IMG/VR virus record: IMGVR_UViG_3300017971_000622
Origin: a virus
Direction: 5' to 3' (one strand)
Length of the DNA: 31,161 nt
Shown: positions 15,047 to 15,192 of the stretch, piece by piece
Layout of the letters: the number at the start of each line of letters is the position of its first letter
Numbering within the stretch: the first letter of the stretch is position 1
The notes under the pieces: generated by a model
What the model was told of the DNA's origin: nothing
The model's database searches: none
What the model saw: the letters and a program-made list of their open reading frames with translations, nothing else
Program-made: the position numbers and the translations under genes

Positions 15047-15192
15047 TGGCGGAGCGTACAGGATTTGAACCCGTGTGAGGTCTCATCCCTCCTGCCAACT
15101 ACGTAAACCCCTCTTTGAGGGGAACCGCTTGTACAAGCTTAGAGACCACAGCGAGCTTTCACTCGCCGACCTAACCACTCGGTCAACGCCCC
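15047..15192 (-). ncRNA. 146-nt tRNA-like RNA (class-II/Ser-like frame with a giant branched extra arm and a non-canonical anticodon loop)
   Basis: Acceptor stem GGGGCGT/ACGCTCC plus G plus encoded CCA. D arm: GACC-GAGTGGTTA-GGTC. T arm: ACGGG-TTCAAAT-CCTGT. The anticodon-position hairpin GCGAG-TGAAAG-CTCGC has a 6-nt loop (or 8-nt with a shorter stem). A ~70-nt insert is closed by GGTCTC/GAGACC and holds two hairpins. Confidence 0.6.

Follow-up and report, generated by a model that had tools for sequence, protein, structure and literature searches.

Here we describe a 146-nt tRNA-like gene in a 31,161-nt stretch of viral DNA (IMG/VR record IMGVR_UViG_3300017971_000622; the whole stretch is hereafter called the window). 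The element lies on the minus strand just 3' of a transfer-messenger RNA (tmRNA) gene and is followed, in order, by an ACP-like gene with a strong terminator, a major vault protein (MVP) homologue split into two open reading frames (ORFs), a tRNA-Met gene, a small ORF and a gene for a TROVE/Ro60 protein. An earlier note on this DNA had singled the element out as a tRNA-like RNA with orthodox acceptor, D and T arms, an aberrant anticodon loop and an inserted structure at the variable-arm position. We confirm that it is more than a product of chance, and suggest that it may be a tRNA-Ser-derived mimic that does not decode. Its parts and immediate flanks are as follows.

15047..15192, minus strand: the whole 146-nt tRNA-like gene, with element nt 1 at 15192 and nt 146 at 15047 (from the fold, the trimmed ARAGORN call and the tRNA-Ser relatives)
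15186..15192, minus strand: 5' strand of the acceptor stem, GGGGCGU, nt 1-7 (direct reading; drawn by ARAGORN)
15168..15184, minus strand: D arm GACC-GAGUGGUUA-GGUC, nt 9-25 (direct reading, fold and covariance-model alignment)
15150..15167, minus strand: hairpin at the anticodon position, GGCGAG-UGAAAG-CUCGCU, nt 26-43 (direct reading, fold and ARAGORN)
15079..15147, minus strand: 69-nt variable-arm insert, nt 46-114, closed by GGUCUC/GAGACC (folding and deletion scan)
15058..15074, minus strand: T arm ACGGG-UUCAAAU-CCUGU, nt 119-135 (direct reading, fold and BLAST matches to phage tRNA-Ser)
15047..15057, minus strand: 3' strand of the acceptor stem, ACGCUCC (nt 136-142), discriminator G (nt 143) and encoded CCA (nt 144-146) (direct reading)
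15193..15200, minus strand: 8-nt spacer AUUUAUCA between the tmRNA CCA (15201) and element G1 (ARAGORN tmRNA end and direct reading)
14968..15046, minus strand: tail of about 79 nt, 3' of the element (alignment with the related contig L004)

The RNA begins at 15192 and ends in a CCA at 15049..15047. Its acceptor stem, GGGGCGU/ACGCUCC, comprises 7 bp including G3:U70, with GGGGC/GCUCC as the top five pairs, and is followed by G73 and the encoded CCA. The 7-bp stem, its G3:U70 pair and the encoded CCA, together with the limits 15047-15192 and the textbook D and T arms, had been claimed before, and both direct reading and the fold bear this out, with the RNA placed on the minus strand. The D arm, which a covariance model aligned to tRNA-Ser D arms (GAGUGGUAAGG), can also be read in a 3-bp class-II form (U8 G9 ACC...GGU C26). 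Short linkers join the arms: U(G) after the acceptor strand, GU before the insert and UCAC after it. The nucleotides of the universal tertiary contacts are all kept (U8, A14, G15 with C48, the D-loop GG, A21, U54 U55 C56, A58 and G53-C61). Where the anticodon arm would be, the hairpin can be drawn with a 6-bp stem and the 6-nt loop UGAAAG or with a 5-bp stem and an 8-nt loop, G-U-GAAA-G-C (GUGAAAGC). In its acceptor, D and T arms, tertiary nucleotides, discriminator and CCA, the element thereby matches a class-II serine elongator tRNA; it lacks the 5-bp anticodon stem with a 7-nt loop (U33, a three-base anticodon and a purine at 37), its variable arm of 69 nt exceeds the natural length of up to about 25 nt, and when intact it goes unrecognized by tRNA detectors. 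The sequence elements that seryl-tRNA synthetase (SerRS) recognizes, a long variable arm and G73 (PMC7609411), are both present.

Folding sets the element apart from random sequence of the same composition. The minimum free energy structure of the whole element is the cloverleaf itself, at -61.5 kcal/mol (z = -3.2), and none of 200 shuffles folded as well. A perfect 6-bp stem closes the insert exactly at the variable-arm position, and the insert folded alone is predicted to form a single long, bent hairpin of about 23 pairs with the tip CCCCUC-AAA-GAGGGG (-27.1 kcal/mol, z = -2.95). The GGTCTC/GAGACC-closed insert, put at about 70 nt in the earlier note, is therefore where it was said to be and measures 69 nt (15147..15079), but the two hairpins assigned to it give way to the long one, since the two-hairpin alternative reaches -19.2 kcal/mol and is weaker by 8 kcal/mol. 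Judged by the z-score and the perfect closing stem, the modeled insert is a structured extension and not junk. The 79-nt tail holds no significant structure (z +0.23).

Neither ARAGORN nor Rfam calls the intact element, and Rfam, RF00005 included, is silent even at E<=10. Detectors miss the element because of the insert: run with default settings on a version from which the insert is deleted, or in which it is reduced to a tetraloop hairpin, ARAGORN does call a tRNA, one with an 8-nt loop and the four-base anticodon GAAA. We also carried out a blind scan in which 7686 deletion variants, each lacking 30-90 nt somewhere across the element and its flanks, were run through ARAGORN. A tRNA was called in 588 of them, every one with its deletion within element nt 25-123, and 430 of the 588 returned the same 8-nt loop and GAAA anticodon, while of 5000 shuffled versions of the trimmed sequence not one was called. 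Other cloverleaves, in which part of the insert serves as anticodon arm, such as Arg(acg) and Val(tac), came only from chimeric junctions with mismatched stems and were rejected.

Because trimming in silico restores a detectable tRNA, the insert might be thought intron-like, to be removed from the RNA to give a normal tRNA, the outcome against which the earlier note had weighed its own reading. We give this explanation hardly any credence. The loop is still 8 (or 6) nt after removal and not 7, a group I or group II intron would need far more than 69 nt, and Rfam gave no match to any ribozyme family. Bacterial tRNA introns, for their part, interrupt the anticodon loop. Among the 30 larger window ORFs scanned (20 against Pfam, 10 against PHROGs), none was recognized as an RtcB-type ligase or a splicing endonuclease.

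The loop itself, 6 nt in the fold and 8 nt in the ARAGORN call on the trimmed form, is indeed never 7, and a non-7-nt loop combined with a 69-nt arm upholds the previous judgement that normal decoding by the RNA is unlikely. That it works as a decoder with an 8-nt loop, be it as a +1 frameshift suppressor on the quadruplet UUUC or as an odd tRNA inserting Phe, Ser or Ala, strikes us as distinctly improbable. ARAGORN does prefer G32-U33-[GAAA]-G-C, with U33 in place, and there is a natural tRNA with an 8-nt loop, the yeast mitochondrial tRNA-Thr (PMC7609411); however, G32 and C38' are able to pair, which leaves a 6-nt loop, and V-Spinach, an engineered tRNA with a large variable-arm insert, has marginal activity only (PMC7590224). 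The suppressor option raised in the earlier note is structurally possible, as a GAAA quadruplet can be drawn, but has no supporting target: MVP, the sole interrupted gene nearby, needs a -1 shift and not +1. Repair of the split MVP gene by quadruplet decoding was rejected on the same ground, its 1-nt deletion calling for a -1 shift, and its second half has a Shine-Dalgarno sequence and ATG of its own.

The scaffold can be traced to tRNA-Ser. We built a covariance model from the sequence and structure of the element and searched the window and 84 related loci with it (734 kb in total). Its best matches other than the element were ordinary phage tRNA-Ser genes (UGA, GCU and GGA) in the related contigs L039, L036, L037 and L055, at 29-38.5 bits, in alignments that span the acceptor, D and T arms and leave out the insert. 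In 50,697 GenBank phage records, BLAST matched just 30-35 nt of the element, in its T arm and the 3' strand of its acceptor stem; most of these matches fall in genes annotated as tRNA-Ser, and there were no others. As the nearest relatives are phage tRNA-Ser genes, the scaffold is that of a class-II tRNA-Ser, and descent of the element from such a gene is well supported by these comparisons, in agreement with the Ser/class-II-like body reported before. Among the origins then listed, a tRNA carrying an insertion element fits best, given a tRNA-Ser-like scaffold with 69 nt placed exactly in the variable loop.

The likeness to phage tRNA-Ser genes, especially those for UGA (e.g., L039 4716-4800), extends to the 7-bp acceptor, G73, the encoded CCA, the D arm GAGUGGUUAGG, the T arm and its junction (...ACA-GGGUUC-AAUCC-UAC) and a stem-loop that leaves at the variable-arm position. 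These genes differ in a variable segment of 5-12 nt, in the genes aligned here, against 69 nt in the element; natural class-II variable arms run to some 13-25 nt. The element further differs in its loop of 6 or 8 nt instead of 7, in a G:U pair at 3:70, which is an alanine determinant, and in going undetected by tRNA finders.

While the body is Ser-like, the acceptor top, GGGGC/GCUCC with G3:U70, resembles tRNA-Ala and the adjoining tmRNA, and its first five pairs equal what we take to be those of E. coli tRNA-Ala. A single C70-to-U change in a tRNA-Ser of the GGGG.../...CCCC kind, as found in L036, would yield G3:U70. The major identity set of alanyl-tRNA synthetase (AlaRS) is G3:U70 with A73 (PMC7590224). 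The tRNA-like domain of the tmRNA has the same top four acceptor pairs (G1-C72, G2-C71, G3:U70 and G4-C69) and an encoded CCA, and its gene adjoins the element, presumably in one transcript; the element differs in having a full D arm, a hairpin at the anticodon position and G73 instead of A73. We rejected the possibility that the element is itself a tmRNA, there being no pseudoknots and no tag reading frame, and the sole tmRNA-family match being spill-over from the neighboring gene.

A parallel of another kind is offered by the engineered aptamer-tagged and V-Spinach tRNAs (Mukai 2020, PMC7590224), in which the variable arm is likewise extended into an extra hairpin module and the G3:U70 alanine-identity element is also used. 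These are synthetic molecules with a 7-nt anticodon loop and short, defined aptamers, whereas the arm of the element is natural and has no known ligand. Variable-arm aptamer fusions may stay active or become sequestered by their binding proteins (PMC7590224).

The element has a narrow distribution. The identical 146 nt occur in the window and in two more assemblies, the ENA contigs L002 and L003. Relatives were gathered by way of the TROVE protein, and the site is covered in five diverged TROVE lineages in which the order tmRNA, ACP-like gene, tRNA-Met, TROVE is kept, save that L001 has no ACP-like gene. What these lineages carry at the site is given below with the identity of their TROVE proteins.

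L004/L005, TROVE 84% identical: element absent, with 145 nt from tmRNA to ACP
L009, TROVE 72% identical: element absent at the site
L008, TROVE 69% identical: element absent at the site
L007, TROVE 71% identical: element absent, with an unrelated 127-nt stretch after the tmRNA
L001, TROVE 56% identical: element absent, with a LAGLIDADG endonuclease gene after the tmRNA, flanked by an 18-nt duplication of the tmRNA 3' end

Aligned with L004, the window has an extra block of about 225 nt made up of the element and its 79-nt unstructured tail. A single ENA sample yielded both L002, with the element, and L005, without it. The stretch after the tmRNA in L007 was considered as a homologue and set aside, with no covariance-model match and a fold z of -2.0.

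Searches further afield returned no second source. Exact and degenerate patterns (the D arm with the hairpin; the insert core) had no match in viral contigs, and a generic pattern of a tRNA-Ser D loop and a T loop separated by 80-110 nt found 25 loci in those contigs, all of them tandem ordinary tRNAs by covariance model and ARAGORN. The T-arm/acceptor pattern had no match in the contigs of species-representative genomes, where the one match to the insert-ends pattern (L114) falls within a coding repeat that is not similar to the window and was dismissed as chance. No second copy of the element was found in the 88 loci fetched with TROVE. Lack of conservation, which the earlier note had linked to decay, is thus seen in part: there are identical copies in three assemblies and no diverged copy in the collections searched.

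The element is the same in three assemblies, missing at this site in relatives and unmatched in the collections; by sequence comparison it was therefore, with its block of about 225 nt, gained recently and in one lineage, in a hypervariable slot just 3' of the tmRNA. The LAGLIDADG insertion in L001 shows this slot to be an apparent insertion hotspot in the phage group. The L001 gene (6134..6690; LAGLIDADG_3, Pfam, E 5e-7) is a homing-endonuclease gene that directly follows the tmRNA, and the duplicated 18 nt are CTCCCGCCGCCTCCACCA.

Such a history also suits a decaying pseudogene, in which a tRNA-Ser acquired beside the tmRNA underwent a one-base change in loop length and a variable-loop insertion of 57-69 nt and is now functionless. 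We regard this as nearly as likely as the reading favored below. Both lesions abolish standard decoding; the element is confined to one lineage, absent from all relatives examined and without a copy in the other collections searched; the neighboring MVP gene of the same lineage is also frameshifted; and ARAGORN reports 2- and 4-base anticodons in other fetched phage tRNA arrays, where aberrant loops recur as likely debris. Set against this, all helices are perfectly paired, the tertiary-contact bases and CCA are intact, the insert prolongs the variable stem in a stable helix (z -2.95) that leaves the fold undisturbed, and the sequence is the same in three assemblies.

We tentatively favor the view, at a probability of roughly 0.45, that the element is a non-decoding, tRNA-Ser-derived tRNA mimic that has a rod-like arm and engages tRNA-binding proteins. 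What speaks most for a function is that all helices and tertiary positions are intact and that the insert lengthens the variable stem without disrupting the fold. The 6- or 8-nt loop at the anticodon position is what makes the proposed mimic a non-decoding one: it would read no triplet codons and would act through tRNA-binding proteins. The element would be transcribed with the tmRNA and probably with the downstream ACP mRNA. Because the acceptor/T-arm stack and the elbow between the D and T loops are intact, RNase P is predicted to cleave at G1, and 3' trimming to halt at the encoded CCA. The product would be a 146-nt RNA with the L-shape of a tRNA, from which the 69-nt variable arm projects as a rod of about 23 bp. 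With an Ala-like acceptor end and a Ser-like body, it could be charged or bound by AlaRS, SerRS or both. The long arm may serve as a protein-binding handle, by analogy a natural counterpart of the engineered aptamer-tagged tRNAs.

Several observations weigh against such a function. The chief ones are that the closest relatives do without the element, which makes it dispensable, and that with no diverged homologue found, neither covariation nor purifying selection is seen. Its expression is presumed and its partner protein hypothetical. A dying tRNA gene, too, would be expected to show two changes of which either is enough to disable decoding. The discriminator is G, whereas AlaRS prefers A73, and the 69-nt arm may block SerRS binding or use by EF-Tu and the ribosome.

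A more daring variant, which we consider a long shot, holds that the RNA matures as a tRNA does, is charged (by AlaRS through the acceptor or by SerRS through the body) and never decodes, the rod docking the RNA or its amino acid onto a phage assembly such as a vault-like MVP/TROVE particle encoded nearby or the ACP pathway. If true, this would amount to a new class of phage adaptor RNA on a tRNA chassis. Even short of that, should the element be expressed and stable, its variable arm would be far longer than in the tRNA-Ser genes compared here (we know of no natural variable arm as long), it would be a rare chimera of an alanine-type acceptor and a serine-type body, and it would mean that phages remodel tRNA scaffolds into non-decoding RNAs, so far mainly an engineering feat. 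Even a pseudogene would document the slot 3' of the phage tmRNA as a hotspot for the turnover of RNA genes and homing-endonuclease genes.

Nearly all genes in the window lie on the minus strand, those that bear on the element being the following.

15201..15578, minus strand: tmRNA gene (ARAGORN, tag AKVINFPGVMAPAMAA; Rfam 135.9 bits)
14616..14888, minus strand: ACP-like gene (PP-binding, E 6e-8), with its leader at 14889..14967
11717..14496, minus strand: split MVP homologue (Pfam Vault_3 and MVP_shoulder)
8366..10174, minus strand: TROVE/Ro60 protein
26538..28920 and 23882..26435, minus strand: NAD-salvage pair of NAMPT (phrog_448, E 2e-155) and an NMNAT/Nudix fusion

The distance of 8 nt between the element and the tmRNA 3' end given in the earlier note stands. 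Its further statement that the two are co-transcribed we infer from sequence signals: between the tmRNA and the terminator that follows the ACP-like gene (14613..14585), no terminator-like or promoter-like site was found. The ACP-like gene always comes after the tmRNA in relatives (L004, L007, L008 and L009), with a conserved leader (CGCCTCCCTCCtaCGCCGTTCTGGCGA) and the strong terminator at 14613..14585. Upstream of the tmRNA, some 800 nt (15579..16385, minus strand) contain no convincing gene, just a 92-aa ORF without a family; the region looks GC-rich and structured, its counterparts in L004 and L009 are also apparently non-coding, and it may hold more RNA genes.

Besides NAMPT and the NMNAT/Nudix fusion, PHROGs and Pfam identify two PAPS-reductase-like genes in the window. 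Genes of these kinds are typical auxiliary or counter-defense genes of large phages. Related TROVE genes occur in phage tRNA arrays on contigs of up to 342 kb, and although the window contains no structural gene, the source is most likely a large phage. The presence of other candidate counter-defense genes (the NAD-salvage pair) would suit the decoy role listed in the earlier note, here a decoy or sponge for host tRNA-targeting defense nucleases or other tRNA-binding host factors, its tRNA shape attracting an enzyme that the altered loop resists or traps, and so would an intact tRNA core with a non-cleavable or non-canonical anticodon loop. We find this improbable all the same: neither a nuclease nor a target was identified, tRNA-Ser is no documented common target in the material examined, close relatives manage without the element, and the long arm would be left unexplained.

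The TROVE and MVP genes invite comparison with two further RNA families. YrlA (RF02553) is a tRNA-shaped noncoding RNA that mimics D and T arms and is encoded near TROVE/Ro60 on the same strand; RNase P can cut the YrlA of M. smegmatis, which is also able to receive CCA, and the anticodon-like arm of D. radiodurans Yrn1 has a stem of 5 bp and a loop of 6 nt (Chen et al. 2014, PMC4201824). Vertebrate vault RNA (RF00006) likewise has segments resembling the D arm (box A) and T arm (box B), paired ends and a variable center, and in the window too MVP and TROVE are near. The element shares the strand of TROVE, 4.9 kb upstream with the MVP genes between. That it should be a YrlA-type Y RNA bound by Ro/TROVE, as had also been proposed, or a vault-RNA-like partner of TROVE or MVP, is nevertheless very doubtful.

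YrlA is circularly permuted relative to tRNA: its two ends form the Ro-binding stem that replaces the anticodon stem, its acceptor is closed by a loop, and its 5' end carries GNCGAAN0-1G (PMC4201824). The element has normal acceptor ends in unpermuted topology, and neither GNCGAAN0-1G nor any CGAA occurs in it, the closest string being GGCGAGUG at nt 26-33. Nothing was found by the Rfam YrlA model over 14900..15300 at E<=10, whereas the same library finds sub-threshold YrlA at 30-45 bits in other phage TROVE loci. YrlA genes lie within about 4 kb of Ro60, on the same strand, and are conserved with it; the element, 4.9 kb away on the same strand, is absent in all five diverged relatives, and L004/L005 keep TROVE and an intact MVP without it. 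The Rfam Vault model had no match at the element even at E<=10, and the insert shares merely AGCGGUU with the conserved 5' block AGCGGUUACUUCGA. A further difference from vault RNA is that AGCGGTTACTTCGA is found in other Y-like RNAs of TROVE loci and not in the element. We conclude that the element is not supported as a YrlA, or as the Ro/TROVE partner RNA of the locus.

Better candidates for that role exist at the locus, since Y-RNA-like genes carrying the GGGTTACTTC motif, separate from the element, adjoin the TROVE gene and show a conservation that the element lacks. Across 753 kb of TROVE loci, the core G[GC]T[TA]ACTTC, which coincides with weak YrlA matches, is seen 70 times on the strand of the TROVE gene and 9 times on the opposite strand, mostly no more than 1.5 kb upstream of the gene. 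An nhmmer profile of 56 unit 5' blocks (AGTGYAG-N4-CGGTTACTTCG) matches the window at 11635..11611 (E 3e-5) and 17011..16986 (E 0.057) and has no match in 14889..15200, which covers the element and its tail. The string GGCGGTGTAG in the 79-nt tail was considered as a Y-RNA 5' motif and rejected as unsupported by the profile.

The first of these matches falls in a conserved, structured RNA of about 270 nt (approximately 11364..11640, minus strand; z -3.1; no Rfam match) that lies directly upstream of tRNA-Met and is preceded by a promoter-like TTG..N17..TATAAT. Its 5' block ACACTTCAGCGAAGGGTTACTTC pairs with a 3' block ...TTAGCGACCATTGGTATC; in the form shared with relatives, CTTCAGnnnnGGGTTACTTC pairs with AGCGAyyATTGGTATC. 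It is conserved in L004, L007, L008, L009, L012, L014 and L027, and is the likely RNA partner of the TROVE protein. Another candidate of this type, at about 16800..17015 (minus strand) in the intergenic region 16773..17089, has the 5' block GCACGCTTCAGACTAGGGATACTTCG (profile E 0.057), the 3' block TTGGTTATCGGTGCC and a TTGCCC..TATAAT promoter-like site upstream.

In the wider set (loci L004-L088), ..AGTGYAG-N4-CGGTTACTTCG.. marks tandem units of 90-140 nt beside TROVE genes of 27-84% identity (e.g., L038 1940-2430, L074 1320-1590 and L079 3735-4440), and these units overlap the sub-threshold YrlA matches. Their AGCGGTTACTTCGA is common to human vault RNA1-2 and mouse Vaultrc5 (PMC10087102, bioRxiv 2024.06.01.596958), and one unit (L038 2297-2430) has a weak match to the Rfam Vault model (21.6 bits, E 0.038). 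By these sequence similarities, the tandem units may link bacterial and phage Y RNAs with vault RNAs.

The MVP homologue of the window consists of ORFs of 373 and 563 aa split by a 1-nt deletion near 13420, with homologues named 'major vault protein' at 45-56% identity, and L004, the 84% relative, has an intact MVP gene of 918 aa. The combination of MVP, TROVE and Y-like RNAs in one phage block echoes the eukaryotic vault (MVP, TEP1 and vault RNA). This setting, an MVP homologue, a TROVE protein and conserved Y-like RNAs side by side, may outweigh the element itself in importance, and as the Y-like RNAs of related TROVE loci share a sequence block with vertebrate vault RNAs, it brings the origin of Ro and vault ribonucleoproteins within reach of experiment.

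L074 (391..532, plus strand) contains a further expanded tRNA-like RNA, 142 nt long, which neither Rfam nor ARAGORN calls. It has the acceptor stem GCGAGAG/CUCUCGC, the T arm GCAGG-UUCGAAU-CCUGC and a long, non-canonical middle, and it lies in a tRNA array 1 kb upstream of a distant TROVE gene, ending 2 nt before a tRNA-Cys.

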